Source: Psammoneis japonica (lineage: Eukaryota). Taken from it: a stretch of 64,000 bases of DNA. Shown here one piece after another: positions 4,849 to 64,000 of this stretch (position 1 is its first letter; each line of letters opens with the position of its first letter). The position numbers were made by a program, and so were the translations under genes. The stretch covers positions 1 through 64,000 of the forward strand of contig QPGO01000270.1 in NCBI GenBank assembly GCA_008632985.1, read 5' to 3'. The notes beneath the pieces were generated by a model that saw nothing but the letters and a program-made list of their open reading frames with translations, made no database searches and was not told the origin of the DNA.

Positions 4849-5142
4849 AGAGAAACACGTAGTTGTGTAAAGAAAATAAGGACACATGTATTGCTAACAA
4901 CAGAACAAATAGGACTTAATTCAGCATTAGTAGAGAAATACGCTTGATGCGTTTCGTAGCCTCTTGTGTTAAATGGGCGACACCAACTACAGCAAGGACG
5001 TGCAAGGTCAAAAACGAAACAAAGACTTGATGGATGACAAAGGAGGAAACCGATGACGGTGCAACAGCAAAGCCCTTACAATGGCTCTGAGACCAAGCAC
5101 CTGCACTGTGTTCAGAAAAAAAAACAGGTGCATGACACTGCA

Positions 5143-5903
5143 TCTTCCCCTTCCAATGATGATTTGATCAAGTGAGAATCATGTTGGTCAAGAATTCCAA
5201 ATTCAACTTTCAAAATGGAGCAGGAAGGAGAAAAAGAAAACCCAGGCACTGGGGGGAAAACCCTCAACCTCAAGTCCAACAGAGTGCCAAATGTTGACAT
5301 GTTCCATGATGCGTGGCTCTCATTGAACTGTGACAGTGCCATTGTTGGTGCGCGCACTTGGGCTGTCTGATGTGAACCACATGAGCTCTTGGCTCCAAGA
5401 ACTTGATGGGATTGACAATTGACTTGATTGGTGCTTGACCACCACGTGCAAAAATCACAGGATTGTTGCTTGGCATTGGCTCAAGAAAGGCTGGAACATG
5501 GATCAGAGCAAGCCTGGCAATGTTCTTGGAAAGCAGCCAGATCCATGATCACATCATGGAAAACATCACACTGGCAGAGTGTTGGAGAGTGCAGCTGCTC
5601 TTGGAATGACCTTGAGAGCATGGGAGCTGCACATTGCATGGTGTGCACAGCAGTGGCTTGTGCATCATCCACTGGTTTGCTTGCTTGCTCAACATTCTGT
5701 GGTGGAGGACAAACATGGGGCAATCTTTGTGATGACAATTTGATGCACTTGTCTGCCTGGTGACACATTGGCCCACTGAGGATTTCATGAGATGACAGGT
5801 GTGCTGTGTCAGTGCCAGCTCTCTGCAAAAGGAGTTGAACTTTTTCACCAGTGAGCTCTCTGCCATTGTCATGTGTCATGAATGCAGCAATTGGGGCAAG
5901 GAT
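5143..5903 (-). mobile_element. Ty3/Gypsy remnant, 3' part (integrase C-terminus plus PPT)
   Basis: THDNGRELTG integrase core, VDDAQATAVHTM; purine tract ggaaggggaaga (5143-5154, minus strand) followed by TG. Confidence 0.7.
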
Positions 5904-6179
5904 TGACAGGATTTGAACAGGATTTAGGTGCGCGCGAAATGTCGCGCGCTGTTCAGTTTACCGCGCACAGTTTTGTGTGCTTTAGTTCCGCGCGTTCGCG
6001 CGCGATGCAGTTTGCTTTCGAGCCACAAGGCTCACAAGAATAACAACAGTAGCCCGATTGTACCGACTTGCACGTCTTTCGGCTCCTGTGACGGTCTCTG
6101 AGCGGAAACTCATCTGCCATTTAGACAGCAGCAAGGAGTTGTTGTTTGAATTCTTGCCATTTGCCTTCAATTTCTGTCA
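5904..6179 (+). repeat. 5' LTR of Copia element 1
   Basis: tgacagg...ctgtca; direct repeat of 12681-12956. Confidence 0.95.
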
Positions 6180-7055
6180 GATTGACAGTCTTGCTCATTG
6201 TCAACCCATTGAGCAAGCCACCTCAATTCTGCGTGGACCTCCGTGTGTGTTCTACGTACATCGGCAAGTCTGCGCGCTTTCAATGCCAGGGCATCGGCAG
6301 GAAGTTAACGTCACCGTCAAGTCTCCTTGCCGCTGGATGTCTGGATTGATTGTGCTGCCTTTGATCGCTGAAGACATGCATTCAACGGTCACATCCAAGT
6401 CTGTCCTTGATCCACATCCCTTGACATGCCCATTCAACGGTTGACGGTCAAGAACCCTGCACATTCAAGGACCTCCGTCGCTGAAGACACACACACACAC
6501 ACATCTTCACGGCCAAGGACTTGGACCCACTCTTTGGACTGCGGCTTTGCCACCACTCTACAAGCACGCCGAGTCTGTTGCACCTGATCTACCCCGGACT
6601 GCTGGTGCTCTGCAGTTCTGCCAGGTCCACGAGGACGACTGTGAGAGCAAGCAGCCGTGATTGCAGCCTGCGTTGGGGCGAGGGTGTTTTCCCGCGTTTG
6701 TTCATTCGTCCACAGCGCCTGACGCCTGCGTCAACTGGCCAGCCTGATCGGGAAATCCAACCGACATAAAACAAGAACGGTTCGGGGGTCTTGTCCACCT
6801 CCAGTCAGCTTGCCTGCAGGGGTTTGCAACCCGCTGCTCTGCTCGCAAGCAACCCAAAGCGCCGCTGGCTGCGGGTTCGGACGTGCCGGCACAACTCTAC
6901 GGACCGGATAGGAAGTTTGGCACTTGACAACGAATGGGACAGCACAGCCCAGCGACTTCTGATTTTAAGGTGGTTCAAGACATCAAGTCAAGTCCATCTC
7001 AAGTCAAGTCTGTTCTCACCCAAGTTTCAAGTCTGCCTTCGCTTCCCAACAAGAA

Positions 7056-10000
7056 TTGCTTGTCCTGACACCACTTTTGTCTGCCATGGTTCTCACTCGT
7101 CAGCAACAAACCGATGGTTTCGAGCACGTTGTTGGAACCGTGCTTGTCCAAGGTGCTGGGAGCCCTCTTCGTTTGGCTTTGACCCAAGACGGCACGGACT
7201 CGCATCAAGAACTGTTCACGTTCATGCCGTCCCAAATCGACTCGCTTGAGTGCGACAACGGCACCAATGTGATCCCTTTGCCCCGCGGTTATAAGAACAT
7301 GTTAGCAGCTCCAATCAGTCTGCACATTGTCAAAGCACACGAAGGTCTTGACGTTGCCAATGACTCCTCGTTGTTCACGCATGACGAGTTCCTTGCCTGC
7401 CGCCTCAGCCCCGACCACATGTCTTCTGTGTCTGTCGGCAGCTCACCCCTCGCACCTCCGCATGTCACCAACCCGACCAAGGCACGCGACCCGGTGCGAG
7501 ACTTCAAGCGAGGCATCAAGCGTGACCCCACCGCTTTCACGGCTCTCAAATCCGACAAGCAGTGGCACACTTGGCACACCTCACTTGTGGCACAAGCCCG
7601 TGCCCAAGACGTCGAGTGCATTCTAGACTCGTCGTACAAACCGACCAGCCCCGAAGACAAACTGCTCTTTGCTGAACAGCAAAAGCACATGTTCTTCTCA
7701 CCGACAAGGGCAAGGCTCTCATTCGCGAAAATGTGGGGTCTTCTGATGCCCAGACCGTCTGCCGCGCCTTGTCTGAGCATGCGCTCGCCTCCACCCGCGC
7801 CTCCATCGAGTCCTCCACCTTGCTCACGTACCTTGCCACCGCACGTCTTGGTGATGGCACTTGGAAAGGTCCGACCCACGGGTTCATCCTTCATTGGCAA
7901 GATCAGTTGCACAAGTGCAAGGCACTCATCCCGGCCAGTGACCACTTCTCTGAAGGACAGAAGCGCGTCATGCTCGAGAATGCCGTGCACCCTGTCGAGG
8001 AACTCCGTGCTGTCAAGAACCAAGCTGATCAGCATCGTACGCAGAGTGGCAAGAGCCTCACATGCGATCAACACTGTGGCTTGCTCCTCTCCGCGGCGGC
8101 TCAATGCGACAGTGCGTTTCAACCCAAGACGACACCTCGAGCTCCCCGACGTGCCATGTGCACACACGACGTCTGCTCCGAGGAACCGTCCGACGATGTG
8201 TTCCACGACATTGACAGCGACATTGACGTCCTTCAGGCCAATGCTGCCCACACCCATGGTCCCAGCCTCACCGGTGACCAATGGAAACGTCTCCCTCCCG
8301 ACCACCAACGGATTTGGGATTCGTTGCCCCATTCCTCCAAGGCGATCATCCTTGAGCATTCTCGTCCGCCTCCCGCAACCCGCGAGCCAGCAACTGCCAT
8401 GAGTCCGTTACGGCCAACCTTCACGACCAACGCCTTGGGAGTGACGGTGATGTCAACTTGTCCAACACGACTCCTGCTGACTCTGGTGACCCCGCTCCAA
8501 ATGTGGACGCCACTTCAGATGATCCCATCCTGGTGCACCTCACCAAGCACAAGCCACTGCCACCCGGTGATCTGCAACGTCTGTTGTCTCCTAACCAAGC
8601 CCCCAATGCCAGTCGCACGGGGCCATCCGCCGCTCCCTCTGCTCCGCCAGCTCCCACCAATGACATGGAACTTAACGGCCGCACTTGCCGCCGCATTGAC
8701 AACCACAATGTCATCCACTCTGCCTCTGCTCATCGCTCCACACGCACTGGTGCTCCAGTCGATCGTGGGGCCAACGGCGGCATTGCTGGCAACGACGTTC
8801 GCGTCATTGCACGCACCTCTCGCCACGTCGACGTTCAGGGCATTGACGACCATCAATTGGTGGACATCCCCATTGTCACCACTGGTGCCGTCATTGAGAC
8901 CCAGCGTGGTCCCGTCATCGCCATCCTCCATCAGCACGCATGCACGGGAAAGGGCAAGACCATTCATTCCTGCGGCCAGCTCGAATGGCACAAACAGGAT
9001 GTCAAAGATCGCTCTGTAAAGGTGCCCAACGGCTTGCAATGTGTTGCCACTCCTGATGGCTGTGTCATCCCCATTGACATCAAGGGCGGCCTGCCTTGTG
9101 TTGCCATGCGACCTCACACTGATGCCGAATGGGACACCCTGCCCCATGTCATCCTCACCGGTGATGACACATGGGATCCTTCCGTCCTCGATCACTCTGT
9201 CACTGACAATGACCAGTGGTGCGACGCGATCTCTGACCCACAGGACGATCCCACTGCCAACCCATTTGACGAGTGCGGCAACCGCCGTCATCGTGTCGTT
9301 GTCAACGAGACCATCATGTCCGTTTCCTTGTCTGCCGATCACGCGTCCGCCCTCGATGATCACCTCATCCCGAACGACGACGTGTTCCACTGGTGTCACC
9401 CACATGCGATTGACCCCAAGGACGATGACGTTCCACCCCCGGAGCACACTGTGCAGCCCAAGGACCCCCCCTTCGTGTCTCTTCGGCCTCACTTTGGCTT
9501 CCCACCTGCCGATGCGGTCCATCGCACTTTTGACTGCACCACGCAGCACGTCCGCATGCCCGCCGGTGCACACCTTAGGAAGGCCTGCAAATCACCCAAC
9601 CCCACCCTTGATGTGCACCGCCGCAACGAGCCTGTCGCCACTGACACCGTTCATGCCGACACCCCGGCCGTCGACTCTGGTTGCACCAGCGCCCAACTGT
9701 TTGTTGGCACCGAGTCTGCCGTCACTGACGTCTGCGGCACCAAGACGGACAAAGAGTTTGTCAACACACTGGAGGATCAGATCCGTGAGCGTGGTGCCCC
9801 ATCCAAACTCATTGGCGACCGTGCTCAAGTTGAGATCAGCAACAAGGTGCTCGGGATTCTACGAGCCCTCTTCATCTCCAGCTGGCAAAGTGAGCCTCAC
9901 CAGCAACACCAAAACTTTGCCGAGCATCGACACCAGACTGTGACGCGCATGGCGAACACTGTCATGGATCGTTTTGGTTCGCCTGCCCACACATGGCTGC

Positions 10001-12733
10001 TGGCGCTCATGTGCGTGTGCTTCATGCTCAACCACACAGCGTCCCCACGTCTCCACTGGCGCACGCCCCTCGAGACTCTCACTGGCTCCACCCCGGACAT
10101 CAGCCCATTGCTTTGCTTTCACTGGTGGGAACCCATGTGCTTCCACCTCGATGACTCTGATTGGCCTTCCGAATCCCGTGAGTTGCGTGGACGCTTTGTT
10201 GGCATTGCTGAGCACGTCGGCCACCAGATGACCTTCAAGATTCTCTCTGACGAGACACAGAAGATCCTCTGCCGGTCCAACGTACGATCCGCTGCCACCG
10301 ATCCTGCCGTTCGAAACCTGCGTCTTGATCCTCCTGATGGGGAGCCACCTGAACCCATCATCAAATCTCGCCATGACGACAACCCCGTCGATTCTCCTGA
10401 TGGGGAGATCAGGACACCCAAGATGCCAGTTTTTGATCCGCAAGACATCATCGGACGCACCTTCCTCATGCAGCCACAAGAGGATGGACAACGCCACAGA
10501 GCTCGCATCGTCAAGGCCGTCGAAGACCACGAATGGAAAGTGAACGGCAATCCCGAGCTCACTGAGTTCGTCTGCTCTGTCAACAACGACGAATGCGAGG
10601 AAGTCCTTGCCTGCAACGACATCATGAATCACATTGAGCAAGAAGACGAAGACACCACTGTTTGGAAATTTCGACGCATCGTGTCACACGAAGGACCACT
10701 GAAGCCTCATGACCCAACCTGGAAAGGCTCAAGCTACAACATCATGCTTGAACGGGAAAGTGGGGAGATCACTTCCGAGCCTCTTGCCATCATCGCCAAG
10801 GACGACCCCGTCACCTGCGCCATCTATGCACGAGAGAACGGACTTCTCGACACTGATGGCTGGAAGCGGTTCCGCACCATCGCGAGGCCAGAAGAAGCCA
10901 TTTCGCATGGCCAACCAAGCCAAGCTTTGCTCCTTCCGCACTGCACCTCGCTACAAGCACGGATGCGAAATTCCCCGGAACTGCAAACACGCCATGTCAC
11001 CAGACGGAACGCAATGGCAACCGCAAATGGGGAGACGCAACTAATCTCGAGATGGACCAACTCGAGGAATACGAAGTCTTCCATGACTGCGGGCCCTTCG
11101 AGCCTTCCACTCCTCCTGTGGGACACAAGAAGATCCGAGTGCACCTGGTGCACGACGTGAAACACGACGGTCGCCACAAGGCACGACTCGCAGCCGATGG
11201 GCACCTCACGGACGTGCCCATCGACAGTGTCTGCTCCGGAGCAGTCTCCCTCCGTGGCCTTCGGCTGATGATTTTCCTGGCCAAACTCAACGAGTTGGAG
11301 ACATGGGCCACCGACATTGGCAATGCCTGCCTTGAAGCCACCACCAAGGAGAAGCTCTACATTGCAGCCGGACCCGAATTTGGCAAACTTGAAGGACACA
11401 TCCTTGTCATCCACAAGGCCCTGCATGGACTGCGCAGCTCCGGTCTCCGCTGGCACGAGCGTTTCACCAACTGCCTGCGAGCTGAAGGCTTCTCCCCCTG
11501 CCGCGCCGAACCCGACATTTGGATGCGCAGGAACGGCGACCACTGTGAACACATTGCCGTTCATGTGGATGACCTCGCCATTGCCACGAAGGACCCTCAA
11601 TCTTTCATCGACACTCTCACGGAAAAGTGCAAGTTCAAGCTCAAGGGTGCGGGACCCATTGAGTTCCATCTGGGTTGCGACTTTTCCCGGGATCCCGACG
11701 GCACCTTGTGTCTGTCTCCACGCAAGTGCATCGAGCGCATGGTCGACAGCTGCACCCGACTGTTTGGGGAGAAACCTGCCACCAACGCCCTGTCACCACT
11801 GGAGAAGGGTGACCACCCCGAGCTGGACACTTCCGAACTGCTGGGGCCCAATGGCATTCACAAGTTCCAGTCTCTTGTTGGTTCACTCCAATGGGCAGTG
11901 TCCCTTGGTCGAATTGACATTGCCACGGCCGTCATGTCACTCTCTAGCTTCCAAGCTGCGCCCCGTCAAGGCCACTTGGATCGTGCCAAACGCGTCTGTG
12001 GGTGCCTCTCCAAGATGCGACACGGCGCTCTCCGCGTTCACACGGAAGAGCCCGACCATTTGGATCTCCCTGCTCCGGCCCATGAATGGATGCATTCCGT
12101 GTGCGGCGAAGCAGAAGAGATGATCCCGAAGGATGCTCCACCGCCCCTTGGCAAGTTCGTCACTGCCACCCACTGTGTCGATGCAAACTTGCACCATTGC
12201 ATGCTCACCGGACGCTCTGTCATGGGAATGCTCCACTTCCTCAACAAATTCCGGCTGATTGGTTCTCTAAGAAGCAAGCCACCATGGAGACTGCGACCTG
12301 CGGGTCTGAATTTGTTGCCGCAAGGACTTGTGTCGAGCAGATTGTCGACCTGCGCATCACCCTGCGCTGCCTTGGCGTCCCGATCTGTGGTGTCAGTTGC
12401 ATGTTCGGTGACAACAAGTCGGTTGTAGACAGTGCCACCATCCCGCACTCCAAGTTACACAAGCGACACACCGCACTGTCGTTCCACCGTGTGCGTGAGG
12501 CAATTGCCTCTGGTTGCCTTGAGCTCCACTTCATCGAAGGCTCCCGCAACCCTGCTGACATTCTCAGCAAGCATTGGGGTCACTCCCAAATCTGGGACCT
12601 TCTCCGCCCCCTCATGTTCTGGAACTTCATTCCATCCGAAGTCGAATCTGTTTCTGTGGCTCCTCAAGCAAACTGGGGAGTGACAGGATTTGAACAGGAT
12701 TTGGGTGCACGCGAAATGTCGCGCGCTGTTTAG
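7056..12733 (+). pseudogene. Copia gag-pol (frameshifted, hypermutated)
   Basis: FKRGIKRDP gag; protease VDRGANGG; integrase LIGDRAQVE and SEPHQQHQNFAE; RT HVDD (from YVDD); RNase H ETATCGSEF and NPADILSK. Confidence 0.93.
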
Positions 12734-12956
12734 TTTGCCACGCACAGTTTTGTGTGCTTTGGTTCTGCGCGTTCGCGCGCAATGCAGTTTGCTTTCGAGC
12801 CACAAGGCTCACAAGAATGATGACAGCAGCCCGATTGTGCCGACTTGCACGTCTTTCGGCTCCTGTGACGGTCTCTGAGCGGAGACTCATCTGCTGTTTA
12901 GACACCAGTGAGGAGTTGTTGTTTGAATTCTTGCCATTTGCCTTCAATTTCTGTCA
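12681..12956 (+). repeat. 3' LTR of Copia element 1
   Basis: Direct repeat of 5904-6179, preceded by the PPT. Confidence 0.95.
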
Positions 12957-12961
12957 AGGAT

Positions 12962-14950
12962 GACAAGACATCTGGCAATTTTGGAGCTGTTGAGAGATGC
13001 CGTGCTGCACGGTCTTGTTCTCAATGCAAGCAAGTTCAGCAACATTTGATGCTGCTGTGTCAACACATTTCAATGCATCAAACTCAATCTCTTGACCCAA
13101 ACATTCAATTTTCTGAGGTCCAACCAAATCAACAGCAACTTCACACCATCACAGCAGAGATGACATTTTGCATTCAGGCAAGCCCCCACAGCAGCAAGGG
13201 CCCACCAAAGCTTTCAAATGCTGACAACCAGCATGTGAAAAGTCTTGACAATGTCATTGCAATGCAGGATTTCAAAACATGTGCTGACAGCAGAGAGCTC
13301 AGTCAATGCACTGGGCATGTCCCAAAAGTGCAATGGCGCCACTGCATGATGTTAGACAACAAATCAGCACGGGAATGCAAATCTTCCACAGGGTTGGCGG
13401 ATCACCCAGTCAATGACAAAAGCAAATCACAGGGGTTGCTGATTCACACATTTGACAATGAAATGATCCATGCACTGCCTTTGCATGTTTTGCAGTTCCC
13501 TGTCAACAATTTGATGTGCTCTTTGAGTTGCTGAGTGTTTGCATGTGACTTGCTGACTGGCGTCCTGTCAAGAGCTGGGCAGTTTGGGAGAGTTTCAAAC
13601 ATGTCTCAGGATTGTTGACAAAAGAAGGTCAGAAGTTGGGGGGTTCTTCATGTTGACATGAAAAACAAGATGCAGCACTTGGCTTGTCAAGTTCATGGTG
13701 TCCTTTTTGTGTGCTGGCGGTGCTCTCACATTGACCACCTTGAAGTTTGTTGGCTTGCCTTTGTTTGGAGGAGCACACTGTCCTTCCACAGGGAGAAAAA
13801 CTCAATCCAGCACATGCAGTTGAGAAAAGCAGTCAGCAAGTGCACCATCCACACTCTGAGGTTGGAGCAAAATTTTCCAAAAAATGGTTGTTGCCTTCTG
13901 AGTGCACATTGCACAACAATGGTCAACAGCTCCCTTTCAGCAGTCAAGCAGCTCTGCTGCCCAGCACTGAGTTTGTGTGTGAGGCTGCCAGGCAGTTGGC
14001 TTTCCCTCTTGTTGCATCATTGCTGCACCCATCAGGCTTGTTGTGTGATTGGGACAGGTCAAAAAGATGTCATTCAACATCAGATTCTTCACCTTGTCAA
14101 AAGCCCTTTGACACTTGGGTGTCCACTCCAGCTTCCTCTTACCTGCCATCTTTCTGAGGGGAGCAAGAACATGAGTTGTGCATGTCCACACATTGTGGCA
14201 ACAAGTTGTTGCACTGGCAAACAACTGCAAATGCATCATGATGATCTGAGGCCGCAGCTGCACTCACAGCACAGCTTCCACTTGTTTCTTTCACAGCATG
14301 ACTCCCATTGAGCTGGCCACATGAACAAGTTTCAGAAGGCATGAGAAGAACAGAATCTCAGCCCATGCAATGGCATTGACTTTAGACCCTTTTTTGCCAT
14401 TTCAACAACACAAATGACTGGAGCACTTCCATCAGTCAATGCCATGGAAGAAATGTGCATGGCAACAGAAAAGAGCTTGCCCTTGGAGGCCAGTTGTGAG
14501 CCAAATGAGACTCTTGTTGTTGCTGATGGGCTGGTCTTCTTGTGCTGCATTGCAGCCTGTGACAAGCATTTTCATCATTGATGCTGATGACACAAAGTGC
14601 GCAAAATGCTGCAGTCCTCTTCATGTCATTCAATTTTCCACAAGGTCAAAAAAAGCAGGCTTTCATGGTCACTGAATGCCACAGCCATTTTGGCTGTCAG
14701 CTGGCTTGAGTTTTGTCCATTCATTTTGCTTGCAACTGGCCATTGACATGAGGGGACTGCATTTGGCAAAGGTGTCAAGCCCCAAGATGATGGGATTGAT
14801 TCAACAAAATCAAAGGTTGTGTGTGTTGTGCACCAAAATGAAAAAAACAAACAAACAAATGTGTTGGGAACAGACAGAGAGCACGCATCATGCCCACTCT
14901 GGCTGGCCACCAGCAGAGTGAGCCACGAACACAGCAAATGGCATTTTTCA
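12962..14950 (-). mobile_element. Ty3/Gypsy remnant, RT/RNase H/integrase N-terminal part, continuous with 5143-5903
   Basis: HVLAPLRKMAGKRKLEWTPKCQRAFDKVK; TAERELLTIV; NVAELACIENKT...SCHP leads toward the HDNG motif across the Copia insertion; upstream limit approximate. Confidence 0.75.
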
Positions 14951-31110: not shown

Positions 31111-31149
31111 TTGCAAAGGCGGGTCCGGCTCATCATCATCCAAGATTTT

Positions 31150-54127: not shown

Positions 54128-57100
54128 CTCAGACATTCTTGGGGAACAACGCCATGATCGTGACAATGGGCCTCAAACACGTTCTTGGCCGTCAAAGTCT
54201 CATGGGCATTGAGGTGAGTTTGATGTTGAACGTTGATGTAACCGGATGCATGATCCACAAAGATTGCTCTGCCCGAGTGCTGATGTTTTGTGCTCTCCTT
54301 TCCAAAAGCATGTTTCAGACAACCACGAGTGGAACAGACAAAATGATCAACCGAAACTCGTTGACCGGGGAACAGTTGGTCCTTCTTCAAGGCACCAGCT
54401 CGATCTTTGACAACACGAGAAGTCTTTCTGGGGCCAGGACGGCGTTTTTGTTTCCCACATTGGCGTGCGGCACAAAGGGGCGGACGATCGACACGACAAG
54501 CGCGTTCATGCAAACGACGGGCACCCTGAGAGTGGGACAGAGCTCCCACACGCATCAAGAATTGCACCTTTTGAAAGCTCAGATGCCCGAGACGAAAGTG
54601 CCAATGCAGTGGCTCCTTTTCGGCAGGTGAGACATTGTGATTGTGTTCCACAATCGTCGACAACGTCAAGTGAAACTCCTCACAAATTCGTTGACTTGCT
54701 TGATTCGCGTAGGCCCATCCAGCCGGTGGGTTAGTTGAAGGTTCAATCAACACTTCAACACCTCGCCTGTGTCCTTGTTTGCGATTCTTGGATCCACTGA
54801 GGATGGCACGGTCCGATGGCAGTTCGATGGACTCATCCGGGTGCATCTGCAAGAGACTGGTCGTGCTCAAGAGACGGGCCTTGGACTTGGGGACGTAGCA
54901 GGCCGGAACCTTCAGAGTCCGAAGCACCCCAGTGACATCAACAAAAGACCAAGCGACGTGTCCAATGCCTGCCACATGGAGGCCCTTTGCGACACCTTGG
55001 AGCCGGACAGCGACAGGTGGTTTCTCGAGGGGCCCGACGAAGTCGTCCTTGCAAGGTGAGACCAATGCGCTTGCGCCTTGGTCCCAAATGACCGGGAAAG
55101 TGTGCTCTTTGACCACTTCCTTTGTCTCCTCAGGACTCGTGAACGCCGCCTTGAGAGTGCCAGCGACAGAAAGTAGAGGTGACGGGACGTCAGCATTGGC
55201 AAGACAAGCCCTGGCTGCTGGGGAGCAGACAGCATCAAGCTGGGAGCGCGTCAAACCGTGCGCAGCGTTCGAACCAACAGGGCGACACGTGGGTGTGTTG
55301 AGGTTCCGACAACCTTGATGACAAATGTTGGGACCCCTTTTTAGAGCAGTGCTCTTGTGACGTCTGGCACCCTTGGGACGAACGGCTTCTCCCTCTCGAC
55401 CGAGGAGAGGACGTGCGCGCGTGAAGGTGAGTGACCGCTCAAAGGCCTTGACCTCCTCACTGAGGTCGTGCAACTGATTGCGCTGCCGCTGCTTAACATC
55501 AGGCGCCCCACGGGCACGTTGGAAGAGAGAGGGATGCCTGGGTGGAGTGCGGCGGCGTCCGTGGCGAGACTGAAGCTCCCGTGCAGGCGACGATGCCCCC
55601 AACGTTCGTGGTGCTTGGAGAACTTGGTTCCTTGGCGTGCAGCCCAGCGGGGAGGAGGGGGTGGAGAAGGAGCATGCAGGGCTTCGGCACGAGCATCACG
55701 CTCAAACTTAGACGGCAAAAATGCAGCCACTAGAAGCAGAAGGAACCAGATGGCGGGCAAAGGATAGAGACGCCAATGTGACGAGACGTGCGACGCAATG
55801 ACCGTCACGAACCAGATCATGGCGTCGACTCCAGCAATCCACCAGTCGGCCGGAAGCTGAGAACACCAACATCCCAAGGTGGCACAGAGCAGCGGAGATG
55901 CAAAGGGGTGGATCAAGGCAAGTGCAACCTGAGACAGTCCAAGCAGTGCATCCTTGAATCCCAACTCAAAGTCGAATTCCGCGTGCCACACCCCAGGATC
56001 CAGGAAGAGGGTGTTGGCCTGCTGAGTCGGCGCAGGAGGTGACTCATCCTTCTGCCCATGCTTGGCAGTGCCGTGAGTGGTTGACCAACGATGGCACTTG
56101 GCACACCAGTGCCAAGTCTTGCCCTGAGCAACCTTGGACTCAGATTGTCCGGGACGAGGCGCGACCTTCTTCCAGTTGCACATGACGCCACCATTGCCAT
56201 TGCCTCCGTTGCCACCTTGACTCCCGTTGCCACCGGAGCGGTTCCTGCCCCTTCCTCCTTGTCCTCCACCATTGTGCCCAGGGTTTGAGCCGCCTTGGTT
56301 GTTTCCAGCACCCTCACTGGACTTGTTGGGACAGTCACGTGCCCAGTGTCCGAGCTTGTCGCAGTTGTTGCACGGAGAGTTTTCCGGAGTCTTCTTGCGG
56401 GGAGCAGCCGTCTGCTGGAAGAGAGCATTGAACTGGGCCTGAGTGAGTGGAACTCCAACCGTTTGACAAGTGGCTGAGGGGTCAAGTGCCAGGTTTCCAA
56501 AGGCTCTGGGAATGGCTTTGGAGTCTGTCGCGTGCTTGACAGGATCCCACTGCGCGTTGTTCTTGAACAAGCAGCAGCGGTCCAGGATCTTTCCAATGAC
56601 TTGAGAGCAAGCAAGGTTCTTGGACGCAAGGTGTCGTTTCGTGTCCGTCTTAGACTTGTGCGCCATCTCAACAAGTGCCTCGCTCAAATTCTCTTTCACA
56701 GTGCGAAGGGCATGCTTGAACTGCTGACCGTTTTTGCCATCCCCGCCAGCTTCCAGGCAAGTGTTGACCAAGGCAAGCGTTGGCTTGTGGTCGCACTGAC
56801 CCACAACATCTAACTCTTGGGCCGTGGTCTTGAACTCGCATGGGAGCTGGGAGAGATCCTGACCGGTGAACTGGGAGGGCTTGAGTTCCTCCAGCTGCTT
56901 TTCGAGCTGCTTGAAGCGTTCGATGGACGTGCTCTGGAGGATCACGACGAGAGCTGTCCAGACTTTCGGAAAGCAATCCGACTCTTCCGTCTCCAGATCC
57001 AGCTGCACGGCCAGGCTAGCCTCCAAGGAGTTCTTAAGAAACTCAGCAGCATCCCTGTCATTGGATGAATCGCAGGAGTCACACTTGGCGAGTTGAGGTG

Positions 57101-58075
57101 CGACAAGATGGGCGACACTCGATTTGGAATGCCGAGGATGTCCTTCAACGCAAGACGTCACAGAAGTTGAGTCCTCGGGGTCCTGCAGGCAAGTTGCCGC
57201 ATCCAAACCGCAGTCCTTGAGATGCTTCATCACCTTCTTCTCAAAGGTTGCAAGATCTCCCTTCTTGTCAAACTTGGTTGAAAGTCCGGCAACGCGGCAG
57301 GCCTTGCTCTTCTGGGCAGAAGAAACATGGTGGGAGCGACACTGGTTTGGTGACATTGGACTGGAGTTGGGAGTTTCCAATCCGGACCAGTCAGCCTTGG
57401 GTTTCCCACCGGTCCAAGCAACTTTCTCAGTGGAACCAATGGAGACAACCCCACCCATCTTAGGAGCCTTGGGTTTGTAGACTTTCGTCTTCGGCATCGC
57501 CACGGTTACCATGGCAGCCACAGCCTGAACGGTGCGGCGCTCGTCTTCCGACATGCGGGAGCCTGCAGTGGGCTCGTCATCATCATCGTCCGAGTCATCA
57601 TCTGAATTGTCCGGGCGAAGTTCCAAGGGCAGAACAGGCTCATCGTCTGGGTCGTTGTGGTCCTGAGGTGGTGGATTATCCCCCGGTGGAGGTTGGTCCT
57701 CAGGAGGCTGATCCTTGAACACTTCGGGGTCGTCAGCCATGTCCGACAGCACGCTTGAAGCTGTCAAGTCAGACCAATCGTCTGGGACATTCTCAATCAA
57801 AGAGTGCGAGCTCGGAGAACTCTCTTGGGTCTCAGGAGGGCCGCTGAGTGGAGTGGGACCTGAGATGGTGCACGTGCAAAATCAACAACAAACCTTCTGG
57901 CGGAACCAGCTGTTCAGCTGATGGAGTCAGTCGCAGTGCTTGACATCAAGAGCACGGAGCGCAGCCAATGAGGAGCGCTGATGGCATCCGAGCCATTGAC
58001 AGGGTTGCTCTGGTTTGGTCATCCCCAACCGGAAGCGCAGAACGTGCCAAGTTACCCTAATTGGGCGAACTGGCC

Positions 58076-58547
58076 AGTCGAAGCTCACGTGTCCGCGCAA
58101 GCTCCGAGTGCCTTCCCAACGCATCGACTGGATGTCCACTCCAGATCGACACCTCAGGCAGAACACAAGCAGATGGAATCCACCAACGAGCAGTGACGAG
58201 TGTTTGGTCTTTCACAAAAGTGCTGCTGACCAAATTACAAGCCACCTGGACTGAATCTGCTGAATGCACCCAAACAGAGGTTGATCCGCAGGCTTGCACT
58301 AGAGACCAGTGCAAACTTCAGGGTTGACCACATTCACAACAATCATCCAAACACTGCTGAACCGATCTGTGGTTGGCCCAACATCTGTGCAAAGCCTGTG
58401 ATCTCCAAAGCACCGCCCATGATCCCCAAAGCATTTGGCTTGAGAATCAAGTTGATGTGGCGCGAAAAGAATTTCGACAAGAATTCCGACTGACAGAAGC
58501 ACAGATGCAACAGAGAATCTGGGTTGGTGGACAGATGAACCACGACT
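58076..58547 (-). repeat. 5' LTR of Copia element 2
   Basis: agtcg...cgact; direct repeat of 50336-50806. Confidence 0.93.
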
Positions 58548-58552
58548 GTTCT

Positions 58553-59039
58553 TGAAACAATTCTCCGAAATGTTCCGCAAAGAGCTCCTCTGGCGACAGA
58601 GACTTGACCCTGCATTTGGGTGCAGAGTGTTTGGACATGTGTTCGCCTTCGTCATCTGTTTCACAATGGACACAATGCATCCACTTTTGCTTTTCCTCCA
58701 CACACTCGAATCGAGCAACTTTTGCCTCGCACAGTCCAGGCATGTTGGTTGCGGGGTCGATGAAACTTTTGGAGATCTTGGCACCAATGGCAGCTTCTGT
58801 TGTGGCAGTGGGTTGTCCTCCTCCAACTCTTCTTTGGTCTTGTCATCAGCACCCACATCATGATTCCTGCTGCTGCTGCTCAAACTTTTTGCTGCCTTGG
58901 CATTCTTCTGTGGAGGAGGCGCCTTTTTTGTTCATGATGACGCTTCTTTGGCAGCTTTCGCATTTTCATCTAAAGGCGGTGGTGGTTGATGTGCTTGTTC
59001 CTCCATCGATCTCTTCAGAGCGACGTGAAGCGAGCTCAT
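58553..59039 (-). pseudogene. 5' part of the split host gene, with a Tudor-like domain
   Basis: IGAKISKSF...LCEAKV...MHCVHCETDDEGE (Tyr replaced by Cys/His); joins as FGELFQE|PFHQVNIHWKEFLQDL. Confidence 0.7.
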
Positions 59040-59206
59040 TGTAGAAGCACTTCAAATCACAAAAAGTGAAGCAAGCAACAAGTGACACAGCTTGTCATCG
59101 CTCATCGCCACAGCAAATGACGGGGCGGCGGGGTGTGGGGTCTTCACGGTGAAAGGTGAAAGGGAAGAGAGAAACTGCGTAAAATCCCTCTCTGCTGGAG
59201 AGAGCA

Positions 59207-62200
59207 GCCAGTGGTCATCCGCACAGATGCCACATTTCAACCAAATGTGGTGTCAATGTGGCACCCCCATCCAAAACACCAGAACAATGCTTCATGTGCT
59301 CCCCAAGTCTTTTTCCGTTGACAGAAAATCATCAAACAACTCAGAGAACAGGGGCACATGCATTGCATGAGGTGTCTTTGATCGGAAGTTGCGTTGGAAG
59401 TCGTCTGAAGTTGACTGAAAAATGGCGTCTCCGAGATGCGCAAATGCGTGCTGGCACCATGAGCGGACAAGAAGCGACCACCGTCGCTGCCTCCGAGAGT
59501 GTCTCCCCCCCCATGCAATCCATTGGTGAACATGGATCAACACCTCAAGCGTCCACTGGAGTGGTTGAAAGAGCTCAAATGGACCCAGCTCCACAACTAA
59601 ATGCTGCTGCTGCTGCTGAGACTCCTGCAAACAATGTTGAAGGCACTCCCGTGCAGCCTCCTCAAGCATCTGACCAAGGGAGCGGCAGAAGCAATGACTC
59701 TGGATCACAGAAACCGCCCCTGACAACACCTCGAACGAAAAGGAAGACAGGTTCGAAAAAGCGAATGAAAATCGGCCGTCAAGCGAAAGTCAAACGAATG
59801 GACCTCTGCCACATTCTCAGTGAGGTGCAATGACAAGCAATGCCTCGCGACGCCCCCAACGGCTTTCTTTTTTTTGGAACTGTCAAGGGCGGAAATTCAA
59901 AAGTAGGTTGGGATGTTGATTTTGACACCCTTCCTGAATTGGATGAAAGAGTTTGTCATGTCACCGCTAACAAGATCACCGTCATGCAGGACTGGGAAGA
60001 GGAAAACCCCATGTCAGAACAGGAACGTAGGAGCCGCTCGAAAGATGGCGACGATGACGAACCCGCGGCAAAGAAATCAAGGAAGACTTTGGCACTTCAA
60101 TCATTGGATGAATTCTGTGAGCTTGAAGATGCAGAAGTTACTCAAAAATCCATCTTTGAAATGAGGCATGGAACCAATCCGCGATGCATTGAAAAGAAGG
60201 TTGCATGGAAGACACACGGTGAGACAGAGTGCGCAACGGAGTCTCCACTCACAGTGCCGGACCCACCTGTTGAATTAAAGGACGTGGACTTTGCCAACAA
60301 GAGCACACAAGAAAATTTCTTTGACCACGTGCTCCCGGATGTCACTGGTCACGGAAAGATTTTGGACAGATGCCTGAGTGACAGGAGAGCAAGCCATCAC
60401 ACTGCATGCCTTCAGCTTGACCGTGCTTTCCATGATCCGGATGCTGAAGATCCAGATTGGATGGCAAAGCAGTGTTGCACAGTGCTCATTGCAGCTGCTT
60501 CTACAATTGAATGCGGAGTTGAAAATCTGTGGAAGTTGGGATCTTCAGAGGGTTGCTCGTTCTACCCCGACTTTGGGCAATGTGTTGACGTGAAAACTTT
60601 CAAGTGTTTCGAAAGCGCAGCTGCATTTTGTTGGGCCGACCCACAATGCTGGTTTCATGACAAACGCGACATGCCATGGGAAGTGTTTCTGCCGGCGCTG
60701 AAAGGATTCAATGACAGGAGACGACAACTCATCAAATCCCTTGTCTTGCCCTGGGTGGGAGCTCACAGTGCTGACGTGTGACACAAACAATTTTTGTCAT
60801 CCGCAGCATGTTTCGCACGCACATTTCCACGTGTGACATCATAAAAAAATTGTCCAGACTCGCTGTTTTGCGAAGCCCCAGATGTTTCATGTGACGAATT
60901 TATAGAAACAACGATGCACCAGTTGCATTCTTGAATGTCTGAAGAATGTAACTGGCCAAGCAAAAAATGATGTGCTTCAATCATGAGCGAGTTTGTGCAT
61001 TCGCAAAATTGCCTCATTTTCTGTTGGCGATCATTGACATTTTAATTGCCGTGTGATTTTACTGTGGAGCTCGCACGCAGAATTCTACGGGCCCAATGTC
61101 ACACGGATTCCCACCTGCGTCTGGAACGCGTCACCCAAGACATCCAAGTTGGGTGGACTCCCGAATTGCACCCATGAGCCCCGCAAGCCTGTGCCTCTTG
61201 GAACGATGTTTCGAAATGGGGCCGAATGCACTGCTGGCATTCTAGTGCACAACGACCTGGTTCAGCTGCCAGAACACCAGCAAATGAAGAAGTGCCACGG
61301 TGAGCAATCCAGTCTGCCTGATGGATCAAACATTCCTGTGCATGTGGCTGAAACACTGCGGCAAGTGGAGCATGCAGGAGTGAAGGAAGGCGGTTGGGTC
61401 GGAGGCGATGCATGGTTTGGCAGTGTTGTGAGTTGCGTCAAGGTGTCAAAACGGTTCAAAGTTCACTCGACCTTCGTTGTGAAGAATGACACTTCTTTCT
61501 TTCCAAAGGCTGCCATCCACAGAGTCATGATGGCACGACACAGCAATCGTTTGGCTGGAAAGTGGGTCACGTTCTTGATGACAATCGCTGGAGTGCAGCT
61601 GATTGCCATGGGTTGCGCATGGAGCAAATCAAGTGTTGCATGTTTTATTTCAACGTGTGGACTAACCTCTCCATCGGACATGCCTCATGTGTCGAACTTC
61701 GAGAATGAGTGTGGAGAAGTGGCATCGAAGGAACTGCCATGCCCAAAACTTTGCGAATTTCTACATGAGCATCTGCCAATCATTGATGAACACAACAAAC
61801 AAAGACAAGACATTCTTGGTCTGGAGAATTCATGGCCAACACGTTGTTGCTGGTTCCGGCTTCTTGTCACCACTGTTGGAATGTCAGTTGTGGATCTTCA
61901 CCGGCTCTATCGGCACCATGACCAAACAACTCATGGGGGAGCCATGACGGCTAGAAAATTCTCAGACATGCTCTGCAAAGGCCTCAAGTGCAGGTCTGAC
62001 CGGGACCGTCTCCCTCGAACTCCACCATCCAAGCCGGCAGCGGGAACACTCAAGCAAACAACCAATGATGCTGGCAATGCAACGAGACCTCCAACAGAGA
62101 AGCAACTTCAGAGCGGGCACAATGTTGGTCAACCGCATCAACAAAATTGTTGGATGTGTCGGAAGTGCAACAAGTGCACCACAACATCATGGTGCTGTGC

Positions 62201-62753
62201 GGAGTGTGACACGCCGCTGTGTCGAAAGAATCGGGGCCAAGGGTTGACCTGCAATGACGAGCACAGGACAAGCAGCGATCCACGCATCCGCTGCCAACCT
62301 GGATGCAAGAAGGGTCAATTTCCTGATGAACTTTAGAGTGATTTGTGGCATGTGACATGACTGCACAACTTGGTGTTTGCCACATGGTGCTGGCCTGATT
62401 CATCAGGACCACAACATAACTTGGCGTTTGCTGCATGGCATCACCAGATTCACTTCCATCTCCCGCAGGGTCAGCCATTGCCATGCATCCTCAACACCAT
62501 CAAGAAAAAACCAGCTGCTGCAGACACACATCATGCACCACTTCCAACAGTTGCAACCCATGACAACAGCGTCTCGCATCTTGCAACTTTCGCCTTTCAG
62601 GCATGGGCCGGTTGGAGTGGTGCAAGTTCTGCATGACCACATCACAAACAAATGTGGCATCTCATGTGGTGTCTTGTAGAATCAATGCCAGGATTGCCGC
62701 AGGCCAGAGATGCCATGCATGGCATCATGGTGTCTGTGCGGATGACCACTGGC
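59207..62753 (+). mobile_element. piggyBac-like DNA transposon, inactivated
   Basis: TIRs gccagtggtcatccgcacaga / tctgtgcggatgaccactggc; flanks AGCA/AGCA; transposase EPRKPVPLGTMF, GGDAWFGS, IDEHNKQRQ and C-terminal Cys-rich domain; premature TGA at 59831. Confidence 0.85.
60748..61132 (+). mobile_element. MITE lacking its left TIR, inside the piggyBac-like transposase
   Basis: Starts gccctgggtggga, ends ctggaacgcgtc. Confidence 0.9.
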
Positions 62754-63180
62754 AGCAGCCAGTGCCAGTGGAAACAAAGTGGTGACATGCAGACATTTCG
62801 CCGTGCGTCACTTGCTTTGCCTCACTCAATGTCCTGCTGCTGCTAGAGTGGAGATCCGTCCCGCACTGTACAATGTAGAATCCTGTTTTGTAAAATTCCA
62901 AGCCTTGCCTCTGATGAGTGCCCAGCTGCTGTTCAGTGCAAGCTCCACCTCCCAGTCCCTCGATGGGACGGGGTCTTCACGGTGGAAAGGGAAGAAAGAC
63001 GCAAAGCACTTCCAAGCACCGAGAGAAACTGCGTGAAATCCCAATTGGAAAGTGGTGGGGTGTGGATGGTTTGCAGTGTGTCACTCACCTTGCCTCGCTC
63101 CATGTCCTGGTGGATCCATCCCACACTGCACAATGCAGAGTCCTGTTTTGTAAAATTCTGAGCCTTGCCTCTGATGAGCA
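62754..63180. repeat. Tandem ~250-bp repeat; the first unit begins at ~59137 and is split by the piggyBac-like element
   Basis: ggggtcttcacggtg...gagagaaactgcgt.aaatccc at 59137 and ~62970; tcctgttttgtaaaattc...gccttgcctctgatgag at 62881 and 63141. Confidence 0.75.
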
Positions 63181-63193
63181 CACCACCACCATT

Positions 63194-63592
63194 GACGCGT
63201 TCCAGCCCTGGCAGGTGGGAGCTCGTAGTGCTGACGTGTGACACAAATGATTTTTGTCATCCGCAGCATGTTTCGCACGTGCATTTCTGTGTGTGACATT
63301 TTAAAAAAATTGTCCAGACTCGCTGTTTTGCGAAGCCCCAGACGTTTCACACAACAAATTTGTGGAAACAACAATGCACCAGTTGCATTCTTGAATGTCT
63401 GAAGAATGTAACTGGCCAAGCAAAAAATGATGCACTTGAATCATGGGCGAGTTTGTGCGTTCACAAAATTGCCTCATTTTCTGTTGGCGATCATTGACAC
63501 TTTAATTGCCATGTGATTTTGCTGCGGAGCTTGCACATGGAATTCTACGGGCCCAATGTCACACGGATTCCCACCTGCGTCTGGAACGCGTC
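63194..63592 (+). mobile_element. Full-length MITE
   Basis: Perfect TIRs; TSD CATT/CGTT. Confidence 0.92.
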
Positions 63593-64000
63593 CGTTGCTG
63601 TTCAACGCAAGCTCTCAACCTCCCAGCCCTTCCTCCCCCCCTTGACAACTCTCCCTGCCCTTGCAGCCATGCTGTTCTCAATGCTTTGGAGATCATGCCT
63701 CTGCATGCAAGTGCAGCCACAAGCCCAAGCTCTCCAGTGGCATCTGCAACACCATCTTGGTCCTTGCACACACCCTTGGCTCTCTTCCCAAACTTTGTCA
63801 CTCTCCCAATGATGCTCATCTTGAGCTCACAAACCTTCTTCCACATCGGCCCCTCCTTTGCCCGCTGATGTTGGCAGCACCGCCATCCCCCCTCCTGCCT
63901 CCCTTTCTGCTCCCTCCCAGCATCCACACATCACCGTCAATGCAACCTTCCCCAAAGCCCCTCCTCCTGGTCTGCCTGCCCCTCCCACTCCTGTCTCAAC

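Follow-up and report, generated by a model that had tools for sequence, protein, structure and literature searches.

Loss of TpA from transposon-rich blocks of the diatom Psammoneis japonica suggests a mutational process acting on integrated DNA

Background

In a 64,000-nt stretch of the Psammoneis japonica genome (contig QPGO01000270.1, below called the window), long blocks of DNA nearly lack the dinucleotide TpA. A first-pass annotation, made from the sequence alone, ascribed this to a hypermutation of repeats from TpA to TpG or CpA, the reverse of fungal RIP. RIP consists of C>T changes, mostly at CpA, by which TpA is created and GC lowered. To our knowledge, mutational genome defence is known essentially from fungi, in the form of this C>T process. 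The locus therefore raises the question whether the missing TpA was lost by mutation, and if so, at which stage, in which direction and by what kind of process.

Results

Extent and borders of TpA depletion

The window contains 1,017 TA dinucleotides, corresponding to an observed/expected ratio (O/E) of 0.25, with CA and TG at 1.52 each and CG at 0.62. Segmentation by a two-state HMM on the probability of A after T yielded nine TpA-depleted segments, which occupy 45 kb of the 64 kb and show TA O/E values between 0.00 and 0.16, in contrast to 0.52-0.78 in the gene islands (Table 1). In 40-bp bins, the borders of the blocks are step-like. The longest run free of TA measures 1,659 bp (24259-25918), compared to one TA per ~23 bp in the islands, and ATAT does not occur in 45,218 depleted bases but 114 times, both strands counted, in the 18,025 bases of the islands. 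Chance is excluded as the cause. The HMM-depleted segment 28597-28909 was not counted, as it lies inside a host frame and has O/E values of 1.14 for CpG and 0.91 for TG. The near-absence of TpA in blocks, its abundance in islands and the sharp borders had been described in the first-pass annotation, and the HMM segments agree with it within ~100-400 bases. Its block coordinates hold, but block 2-1005 and two TA-normal islets had been left out.

Table 1. Features of the window in order of position; blocks and islets are those of the HMM segmentation
Feature	Position	Strand	TA O/E	CG O/E	Remarks
Depleted block	2-1005		0.16	0.63	
Three tandem units, ~190 bp each	1234-1812	+			in otherwise normal DNA
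Depleted block	5082-16861		0.08		saturated relic with Copia-1 inserted
Relic around Copia-1	5082-5903; 12957-16861		0.01-0.06	0.08-0.35	old, saturated, single-copy
Copia-1 target-site duplication	5899-5903; 12957-12961				5 bp, AGGAT
Copia-1 LTR retrotransposon	5904-12956	+			RVT_2 in 10857-12428; LTR pair; very high k-mer depth
Copia-1 LTRs	~5904-6179; 12677-12956				termini TGACAG...CTGTCA
Gene island (contrast)	16862-20878		0.60	1.03	GT2 glycosyltransferase and Arf GTPase
GT2 glycosyltransferase	16996-18918	+			in island 16862-20878
Arf GTPase	20047-20583	-			in island 16862-20878
Depleted block	20888-26176		0.05	0.32	holds longest TA-free run
Purple-acid-phosphatase-like gene fragment	21811-22245	-			C-terminal domain; Pfam Metallophos_C, E 1.2e-07
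Depleted block	29092-33453		0.07	0.36	
TA-normal islet	33454-34066				
MITE-like copy	33803-34115	+			undecayed, internally deleted; inferred ancestral TA kept 20/20; ancestral-state reference
Depleted block	34077-36492		0.08	0.38	
MITE-like copy	35024-35311				TA kept 5/15; in block 34077-36492
Depleted block	39510-46044		0.04	0.17	most decayed
Depleted block	49961-53758		0.04	0.71	mainly RT half of Copia-2
Copia-2 target-site duplication	50331-50335; 58548-58552				GTTCT
Copia-2 LTR retrotransposon	50336-58547	-			RVT_2, gag_pre-integrs, zf-CCHC
Copia-2 LTRs	50336-50806; 58077-58547				
MITE-like copy	53725-54141	+			half decayed, inserted in Copia-2; TA kept 11/23
TA-normal islet	53761-53956				
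Depleted block	53963-63996		0.11	0.66	gag/integrase half of Copia-2 and two MITE-like copies
MITE-like copy	60730-61146				TA kept 6/23; in block 53963-63996
MITE-like copy	63190-63606				TA kept 4/23; in block 53963-63996

Dinucleotide frequencies in depleted DNA and islands are 0.0044 vs 0.0438 for TA, 0.0338 vs 0.0465 for CG, and 0.2057 vs 0.1523 for CA and TG together. The total of pyrimidine-purine (YpR) steps is nearly constant (0.2440 vs 0.2426), the gain of CA and TG being balanced by the loss of TA plus some CG. GC content is 0.51 in depleted DNA and 0.45 in the islands. CpG is also low in the TpA-depleted blocks, with O/E values of 0.17-0.71 vs 0.77-1.15 in islands. The co-localisation of CpG decay with TpA decay had been overlooked in the first-pass annotation.

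Confirmation in a second read set

Sharp-bordered blocks with co-located CpG anomalies resemble basecalling errors, which could arise if a modified base at TpA in transposable element (TE) DNA were miscalled in long reads while the true sequence keeps TA. DNA reads of run X1 (word depth ~55-62 on unique DNA) were assembled into contigs from 31-letter words at ~60x. A contig of 3,426 bases covers the TA-free block 12953-16377 with four differing letters, and a word depth of ~62 indicates that this block is single-copy at a likeness of at least 90%. Across Copia copies, the X1 variants comprise 250 transitions vs 48 transversions, CA/TG doublets included. The read type of X1 was inferred from the clean k-mer depth to be short or HiFi, and the run is possibly from the assembly's own sample and thus not fully independent, which speaks somewhat for an artefact. 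Noisy long reads, however, could not yield ~60x contigs of 31-letter words that reproduce the TA-free sequence. In addition, a miscall that depends on context should affect the two LTRs of an element alike, yet TG is found opposite CA at 14 sites with identical flanks, and Tyr-less Copia polyproteins with Cys or His at conserved Tyr positions are also encoded in unrelated public metagenome assemblies. An artefact is therefore very improbable; the basecalling error that had been named as a danger to the proposal was not seen, the X1 contig agreeing with the TA-free block. Another run, X2, covers the gene island at 16911-20784 and not the TE blocks; the uncovered parts were not counted as evidence.

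Changes after integration

Copia-1 and Copia-2, on opposite strands, bear out the annotated occurrence of TpA loss in LTR elements of both orientations. The Copia-2 LTRs differ by 44 transitions and no transversion. Fourteen CA|TG doublets are found in identical flanks, where CpG decay predicts 0.5. Since the two LTRs were identical at integration and are now different, these changes were made in the chromosome, after integration. Per LTR lineage, the loss of TA was ~0.95 in Copia-2 and ~0.68 in Copia-1, that of CpG 0.20 and 0.10, and other substitutions numbered seven per 470 bp and three per 280 bp, respectively, both being small samples. From these two LTR pairs, again with small samples, TpA decay is estimated to be ~10-14x faster than CpG decay in the same elements and ~200-400x faster than change at other sites. 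One-sided CpG losses number eight and four in the LTR pairs, and the loss of 10-20% of CpG per LTR is ~20-30x background. Twelve repeat pairs showed 259 transitions vs 43 transversions, CpG-derived C>T included, and 223 of these 302 substitutions are changes from one YR step to another.

Direction of change and damage to proteins

Conserved tyrosines, encoded by TAT or TAC, should be indicative of direction. When the Copia-2 reverse transcriptase (RT) was compared to 60 homologues, Tyr was kept at none of 11 conserved columns, which now specify seven Cys (TGY), three His (CAY) and one Trp (TGG). Other conserved residues were mostly retained (L 40/43, G 23/24, W 12/12). The Copia-1 RT (conserved Tyr kept at 0/8 columns) was left out of account, because its alignment is too weak, with agreement at no more than 79 of 245 conserved columns. 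The Tyr content is 0-0.6% in seven TE frames vs 2.3-5.1% in six host frames, and TAT and TAC occur at 0.33/kb and 0.98/kb, vs ~12/kb in the islands. The replacement of conserved Tyr by Cys or His argues for decay and against an original composition of the TEs. Polarised TA>TG/CA events (n = 79) gave 47 TG and 32 CA on one strand. Taken together, these data indicate that TA was changed to TG or CA, that is, by A:T>G:C transitions removing TpA.

Four proteins pooled showed 27 Tyr>Cys vs 12 Tyr>His changes (p = 0.024), and for 29 events vs 10 the edited strand would be the one that reads 5'-TAC-3'. After removal of duplicates due to shared ancestry, the ratio was 17 vs 7 (p = 0.064). These figures hint, weakly after this removal, at a flanking-base preference and a strand-reading enzyme. 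The most depleted context is ATAT, not GTAC, which is partly at odds with a 5'-TAC-3' preference. TEs and islands may have differed in starting composition, which affects comparisons of survival by context. Strand-coordinated runs of CA or TG were not found (runs test, z = -0.65 in depleted DNA and -2.22 in normal DNA).

MITE-like elements, tandem units and a gene fragment

A ~415-bp MITE-like family with terminal inverted repeats shows graded loss of TA, with 70-89% of CpG still kept. Its half-decayed copy within Copia-2 accounts for the TA-normal islet at that position. The untouched copy at 33803-34115 is ~89% identical to its relatives and wedged between saturated blocks. Because it has not lost TA, a rule by which all repeats, or all bases of a silent domain, are targeted would not suffice. 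The largest self-match of the tandem units contains 19 substitutions, of which 16 are TA vs TG or CA, and these units represent decay at an early stage. The purple-acid-phosphatase-like fragment aligns to PDB 6gja (E 7.7e-04) and, within the GHVHAYER motif, has His in place of Tyr. Among the targets that had been listed, tandem repeats and gene-derived pseudogenes (a single case, this phosphatase C-terminus) could thus be recognised. Of DNA transposons and MITEs, only the MITE-like family was found and not autonomous elements, as Pfam detected no transposase domain in 95 reading frames of the window (67 + 17 + 11, some scanned twice). The long frames at 59183-62336, inside block 53963-63996, also lack a transposase by Pfam.

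Occurrence in other hosts

All of 80 metagenome loci encoding RT relatives have TA O/E values of 0.35-0.74 (median 0.52), in a search in which one of two patterns contains Tyr, so that decayed copies were disfavoured. The process would therefore not be general among hosts of diatom-like Copia elements. Homologues found by shared words, 120 among the matches listed, all have 1.9-3.9% Tyr. Among 150 library representatives, P0144, P0223, P0273 and P0172 contain less than 1%; in three of them, Tyr is missing from almost every column in which it is conserved, and in P0172 from only part of these.

Discussion

The explanation favoured here, with a probability of about three in four for the whole, is a TpA-targeted mutation of silenced, TE-rich blocks at the DNA level, in which the enzyme and the defence function are the conjectural parts. 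At TpA steps the A:T pair would become G:C, and the strand struck would decide between TpG and CpA. Sites would be hit one at a time, on either strand, once the elements have integrated, and the process would stop at sharp borders beside host genes. A slower decay of methylated CpG to TpG or CpA would run in the same blocks, and both together would push all four pyrimidine-purine steps to CA/TG. No Tyr codon would survive, many codons for Ile, Val and Leu would be lost as well, and the proteins of the element would be dead. The enzyme may be recruited to silent, CpG-methylated chromatin, and the likeliest candidate would be a TadA/ADAT2-type adenine deaminase, converting A to inosine, which is copied as G. 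The signature, its direction, the timing after integration, the relative rate and the restriction to blocks are established. A tie to silent, methylated chromatin is suggested by the co-located CpG decay. Diatoms methylate TEs at CpG. A role in genome defence may be supposed, and a by-product of chromatin state would leave the same picture. The chromosomal, both-strand inactivation of TEs claimed in the first-pass annotation agrees with the LTR differences and with the loss of all 11 conserved Tyr from the Copia-2 RT. Its statement that TG as well as CA arises on a single strand agrees with the polarised events. That neither RIP, nor 5mC decay alone, nor ADAR is responsible follows from direction, mass balance, LTR pairs and polarised events.

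As to chemistry, TpA is its own reverse complement, and A>G and T>C routes therefore give an identical outcome. Adenine deamination, thymine oxidation and other A:T>G:C routes at TpA are thus indistinguishable from sequence. The adenine-deamination-like process proposed at first is hence upheld as an A:T>G:C change at TpA, but not as deamination, since T>C at a modified thymine looks identical. A target A after T, as expected for TadA/ADAT2-type enzymes, fits the data, and a process directed at thymine, on the opposite strand, fits them equally well. In such a process, a TET/JBP-type dioxygenase working in silent chromatin would oxidise the T of TpA; the product, 5-hydroxymethyl- or 5-formyluracil, would mispair with G at replication and give T>C. 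5-Formyluracil does mispair with G, and in dinoflagellates 5-hydroxymethyluracil is found preferentially at TpA and TpC. All results are as compatible with this as with A>G, the trend in strand choice then becoming a 5'-G preference (GTA>GCA). Among the matches listed, however, literature naming diatoms together with 5-hydroxymethyluracil was all work on dinoflagellates, and the authors of the Bigelowiella natans report discussed below prefer an ADAT2-like deaminase, as a prediction only (bioRxiv 10.64898/2026.01.13.699255). Thymine oxidation is considered unlikely. A burst triggered by homology, in which duplications are recognised as in RIP, perhaps only in a rare sexual phase, and TpA is then mutated with chromatin state as a consequence, appears quite unlikely. 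Every recognisable target is indeed a repeat, be it Copia, MITE, tandem units or gene fragment, the three tandem units differ chiefly at TA in otherwise normal DNA, and the sharp borders look like limits of duplicated segments. On the other hand, block 12953-16377, like other saturated ones, is present in a single copy, and a MITE copy so similar to its relatives was left untouched, which speaks in part against repetitiveness as the trigger, an element of the original proposal. Furthermore, losses of TA and CpG climb together over elements of different age, as if by a clock, and the main target in B. natans is described as single-copy (bioRxiv 10.64898/2026.01.13.699255).

Editing of retroelement RNA by an ADAR-like enzyme, fixed by reverse transcription, or a low TA content intrinsic to the TEs is hardly credible. 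Copia elements do have an RNA stage, and ADAR-type enzymes favour U 5' of the edited A, as stated in the same preprint (bioRxiv 10.64898/2026.01.13.699255). RNA editing is contradicted by the differences between the two LTRs of one element, which place the changes after integration, by the near-equal numbers of TG and CA on one strand, and by hits in tandem repeats, in non-coding relics, in the fragment of a host gene and in a DNA element of the MITE type. Intrinsic composition is contradicted by the decay of conserved Tyr to Cys or His.

In a literature search, no report of TpA-erasing hypermutation was found for diatoms. A process of this kind has nevertheless apparently been described once, and the earlier statement that no such system was known no longer holds. 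In a mutation-accumulation experiment with B. natans, integrated viral DNA underwent TpA>TpG/CpA hypermutation; according to the preprint text, the target was a single-copy, transcriptionally silent viral insert, the rate exceeded background by two to three orders of magnitude, and TE domains were enriched among TpA-depleted genes (bioRxiv 10.64898/2026.01.13.699255). As far as that text goes, B. natans and the window have in common that nearly all changes are A>G/T>C at TpA with TG and CA products, that they are confined to foreign or silent DNA (silence being presumed here) with the rest normal, and that the rate is orders of magnitude over background (here ~200-400x, from small samples). 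B. natans is a chlorarachniophyte (Rhizaria), whereas the host of the window is a diatom (stramenopile), of the pennate group as judged from protein similarity. The NCLDV insert of B. natans is reported to keep many TpA (rho 0.45), in contrast to O/E values of 0.04-0.11 across the TE nests, and mutations there were measured de novo in lines and are deduced here from fixed differences. The preprint text mentions neither CpG decay nor a flanking-base context, although its Table S2 may hold context.

With RIP the process would share its action on DNA, transitions on both strands, confinement to repeats, fairly sharp limits and the inactivation of TEs. It is opposite to RIP in that TpA is lost and GC gained via A:T>G:C. 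As to the duplication trigger of RIP, repeats are struck here, yet saturated blocks are single-copy and one repeat copy is intact. Decay of 5mC at CpG affects the same blocks and yields the same TG and CA products, but explains the CpG part only and cannot remove TpA. ADAR editing of repeat dsRNA shares A>G, the 5' U preference and repeats as its aim; it concerns RNA and is not inherited, whereas the changes in the window are fixed in DNA, post-integration, and found also in non-retro elements. TadA, ADAT2-ADAT3 and TadA-derived adenine base editors target A after U or T, and the resulting inosine is read as G. For the tRNA adenosine deaminases the target is A34, invariably preceded by U33, and the natural site of E. 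coli TadA is UACG. The natural substrate of these enzymes is tRNA, and here it would be chromosomal DNA, perhaps with a pyrimidine preferred after the A. Few cases of natural deaminase action on chromosomal DNA are cited in the preprint (bioRxiv 10.64898/2026.01.13.699255).

Conclusions

The same signature is thus seen in a diatom, near saturation and over whole transposon nests. Added here are the range of targets, from retroelements and a MITE-like element to tandem repeats and a gene fragment, adjacent CpG decay, first estimates of speed (~10-14x CpG decay) and a hint of flanking-base preference. As TAA and TAG stops disappear with the decay, TEs retain long open frames from which gene callers will predict Tyr-less 'proteins'; such predictions are already in public databases. 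As diatoms can be transformed and crossed, they would provide a second tractable system in the hunt for the enzyme. A natural DNA adenine editor working on duplex chromatin would, if real, be of interest to genome engineers. The finding points to a wider spread among major marine algae. It is possible, if doubtful, that a natural 'adenine base editor' guided by chromatin is common to diatoms and chlorarachniophytes; it would be recruited to CpG-methylated or otherwise silenced double-stranded chromosomal DNA, edit TpA on both strands and be one of the main reasons for dead TE nests in these algae. It would then be a second, independent mutational defence beside RIP, possibly an old one in SAR.

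Distribution of TpA in the window

Over the whole window TpA is rare (n = 1,017; observed/expected ratio, O/E, 0.25), and CpA and TpG are both in excess (O/E 1.52 each). Segmentation with a two-state HMM on the chance of A after T yielded the depleted blocks listed in the table, within which TA O/E is 0.04-0.16, separated by islands with values of 0.52-0.78. The borders of the blocks are step-like at a bin size of 40 bp, and the longest TA-free run measures 1,659 bp. The TpA depletion noticed in the first-pass annotation was thereby confirmed, and its block coordinates agree with the HMM segments within a few hundred bases. CpG is likewise depleted in the TA-poor blocks, O/E being 0.17-0.71 compared to 0.77-1.15 in the islands.

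A ninth depleted HMM segment, a 313-bp TA-free stretch at 28597-28909 within a host frame (27774-28937, minus strand), was set aside, since the rest of the signature is absent (CpG O/E 1.14, no TG excess); a link with hypermutation is improbable. Exactly at a block border, 113 bp (33340-33452) match their own reverse complement at 81%, like a hairpin-forming palindrome.

Depleted blocks, island host genes and mobile elements
Feature	Position	Strand	Remarks
Depleted block	2-1005		HMM
Acyltransferase	2500-3402	-	island host gene
Flavin reductase domain	3957-4475		island host gene
Depleted block	5082-16861		HMM
Copia-1	5904-12956	+	exact ends, target-site duplication AGGAT intact
GT2 glycosyltransferase	16996-18918		island host gene
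Arf GTPase	20047-20583	-	island host gene
Depleted block	20888-26176		HMM
Purple-acid-phosphatase-like gene, C-terminal fragment	21811-22245	-	within depleted block
GNAT acetyltransferase	26194-27027		island host gene
Depleted block	29092-33453		HMM
Depleted block	34077-36492		HMM
Depleted block	39510-46044		HMM
Depleted block	49961-53758		HMM
Copia-2	50336-58547	-	exact ends, target-site duplication GTTCT intact
Depleted block	53963-63996		HMM

The best relatives of the GT2 protein are from pennate diatoms, Seminavis robusta (51%) and Nitzschia inconspicua (43%), which identifies the host as a pennate diatom without an entry of its own in the protein database. The two LTR retrotransposons, Copia-1 and Copia-2, each sit inside older depleted DNA. 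Tandem repeats and long relics without recognisable domain also occupy the blocks, and a MITE-like family (about 415 bp, terminal inverted repeats) is represented by eight copies. A Pfam search of 95 reading frames of the window, some of them scanned twice, detected no transposase. The Copia-1 family is highly abundant in this genome, its words reaching a summed depth of 6e4-1.4e5 in the public sequencing run X1 versus about 60 for unique DNA, a value that represents summed contig depth and not copy number. In the Copia-2 LTR, the first base (G, window 50336) and the last base (T) fail to pair as inverted termini. A>G at the TpA formed by the last T of the target-site duplication and the first base of the element, or C>T at the other end, would explain this mismatch.

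TpA and CpG are converted to CpA and TpG

From islands to blocks, the frequency of TA drops from 0.0438 to 0.0044 and that of CG from 0.0465 to 0.0338, while CA and TG together rise from 0.1523 to 0.2057. Taken together, the four pyrimidine-purine steps are equally frequent in both (0.2426 in islands, 0.2440 in blocks); therefore, TA and CG were converted to CA/TG with little other change. This direction is opposite to that of RIP, which was rejected as an explanation, and CpG decay as the whole cause would account for the CpG part alone.

The same direction is recorded in proteins. Tyr makes up 0-0.6% of residues in seven TE frames versus 2.3-5.1% in six host frames. When the Copia-2 RT was aligned with 60 homologues, each containing 2.2-3.9% Tyr, none of the 11 conserved-Tyr columns retained Tyr; seven hold Cys (TGY), three His (CAY) and one Trp (TGG), and conserved residues other than Tyr are mostly retained. 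As read from this alignment, the loss of conserved Tyr independently shows the direction of change at the protein level.

Stop codons follow the same rule: the density of TAA and TAG in blocks is six to seven times below that in islands, with no such drop for TGA. Long open frames in depleted DNA are therefore partly a by-product, TGA being the sole remaining stop there. Three successive stop-free frames of 216, 315 and 432 aa are found on the plus strand at 59183-62336, without a Pfam match even at E 5; the 432-aa frame is long even allowing for the loss of TAA and TAG.

Changes occurred after integration

A retroelement integrates with two identical LTRs. In Copia-2 the pair now differs by 44 substitutions, every one a transition, and 37 of these lie within YR-to-YR changes. 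Among these differences are 14 TG-versus-CA doublets in identical flanks, where 0.5 would be predicted from CpG decay at the rate of the same LTRs. Ancestral TA must therefore have been struck independently, on different strands, in both LTRs after integration. Across 12 repeat pairs, 259 transitions and 43 transversions were counted, and 223 of the 302 substitutions are YR-to-YR.

The MITE-like family forms a graded series of TA decay. One copy, which carries an internal deletion and lies in a small TA-normal island, retains all 20 inferred ancestral TA sites, and copies in depleted DNA retain 11/23, 6/23, 4/23 and 5/15, with 70-89% of CpG kept. Saturated blocks flank that island (33454-34115, TA O/E 0.76) on both sides. 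Its content is the undecayed copy and about 350 bp of TA-rich DNA, and it may have been inserted recently or be protected. TA also accounts for most differences among three tandem units whose surroundings are normal (16 of 19 substitutions in the largest self-match). LTR doublets, MITE-like series and tandem units together exclude both RNA editing before reverse transcription and an originally low TA content.

Per LTR lineage, Copia-2 lost about 95% of TA and 20% of CpG and changed at 0.75% of other sites; the values for Copia-1 are about 68%, 10% and 0.5%. TpA thus decays at roughly 10-14 times the rate of CpG and 200-400 times that of background, estimates from two LTR pairs with small samples (29 and 14 inferred TA sites). 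CpG decay in these small samples is about 20-30 times background, in line with expectation for methylated CpG.

Sequencing data

With a basecalling artefact, TA should reappear in amplified or short-read data, as the first-pass annotation had pointed out, but TA did not return en masse in the run examined. The window DNA is present in one public study. In X1, which may be the assembly's own sample, word depth is even (about 55-62) over unique parts of islands and blocks alike. Clean 31-letter words at this depth are impossible from noisy long reads, so X1 is presumably a polymerase-read library. Its contigs give the TA-free block 12953-16377 as one piece of 3,426 bases with four differing letters and no mass return of TA. 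In X1, the very numerous copies of Copia-1 vary by a transition at 250 places and by a transversion at 48, once more with CA/TG doublets. Independently of X1, a context-driven miscall is ruled out by the LTR pair, since sites with identical flanks read TG in one copy and CA in the other.

At window position 13586, within a saturated block, the X1 contig has TA (depth 62/62) and the window TG, a discrepancy between alleles or between strains. A second run of the same sample, X2, matches only the gene island 16911-20784 in exon-like pieces; it is transcriptome-like though listed as 'DNA?'.

Strand, flanking bases and possible mechanism

Among 79 polarised events, 47 gave TG and 32 CA. Strand-coordinated runs of CA/TG labels were not found along the blocks, and the mixed products therefore indicate single-site action on either strand. 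TA survival, as a fraction of island density, is 0 for ATAT, 0.011 for ATAC/GTAT, 0.06 for GTAC, 0.18 for CTAG and 0.31 for TTAA, although the starting composition of TEs and islands may differ. When TAC stands on just one of the strands, that strand carries the edit in 29 cases versus 10, or 17 versus 7 if each column and product is counted once (p = 0.064). Tyr>Cys exceeds Tyr>His by 27:12 in four proteins (p = 0.024), in agreement with the TAC-strand bias. A pyrimidine may accordingly follow the edited A, which we regard as a lead only.

The locus thus records a TpA-specific A:T>G:C process on chromosomal DNA that hits both strands once an element has integrated, stays within TE blocks and outpaces CpG decay. 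A putative enzyme would be directed to silent, CpG-methylated chromatin. The A edited by tRNA adenosine deaminases comes after a U; this and the pyrimidine trend favour adenine deamination at TpA as the likely chemistry. Its main rival, oxidised thymine, would leave an indistinguishable sequence outcome. A homology trigger, in line with the repeat-targeted process first proposed, is possible but not favoured. The tandem units fit such a trigger, but the saturated blocks are single-copy, one MITE-like copy is untouched, and TA loss climbs with CpG loss in a clock-like manner.

Occurrence in other sequences and relation to a known process

At metagenome loci encoding relatives of the Copia-2 RT, none of 80 was strongly depleted (TA O/E 0.35-0.74), one search pattern containing Tyr and hence disfavouring decayed copies. 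Among the best 150 library representatives, four Copia-like proteins contain less than 1% Tyr: P0144, P0273, P0223 and P0172. They belong to distinct Copia families from environmental assemblies, with 32-48% identity to the query. P0144 has one Tyr in 2,061 residues, its 18 conserved-Tyr columns being occupied by eight Cys, seven His and three others; P0273 and P0223 resemble it, and P0172 shows only a partial pattern. Sequences bearing this mark are therefore present elsewhere in public data. P0144, P0223 and P0273 (partly also P0172 and P0303) are listed as metagenome-derived proteins, yet correspond to Copia polyproteins that are Tyr-less and hold Cys/His where Tyr is conserved. They are decayed TEs that were called as genes owing to the erasure of TAA and TAG stops.

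The core of the first interpretation, a TpA-specific A:T>G:C change of chromosomal DNA on both strands, is upheld by the LTR doublets and the Tyr loss; the remark that no such system was known no longer holds. A full-text literature search returned one matching report, on Bigelowiella natans (bioRxiv 10.64898/2026.01.13.699255), and none for diatoms under several wordings. According to this preprint, 231 of 302 nuclear mutations in mutation-accumulation lines fell into two integrated viral regions. Nearly all were A>G/T>C, without exception at TpA, and the rate per site and generation was about 6e-7 there against 3.5e-10 elsewhere. The larger of the two is a transcriptionally silent, single-copy region, TpA-depleted genes are enriched in TE-type Pfam domains, and an ADAT2-like DNA adenine deaminase was proposed from prediction alone (bioRxiv 10.64898/2026.01.13.699255). 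The sequence-level features of that process are found at the present locus. The lineage differs, however, the diatom locus is near saturation across whole TE nests, and CpG decay, unmentioned in the B. natans text consulted, is co-located with it. We rate the locus as belonging to a very recently described kind of process.
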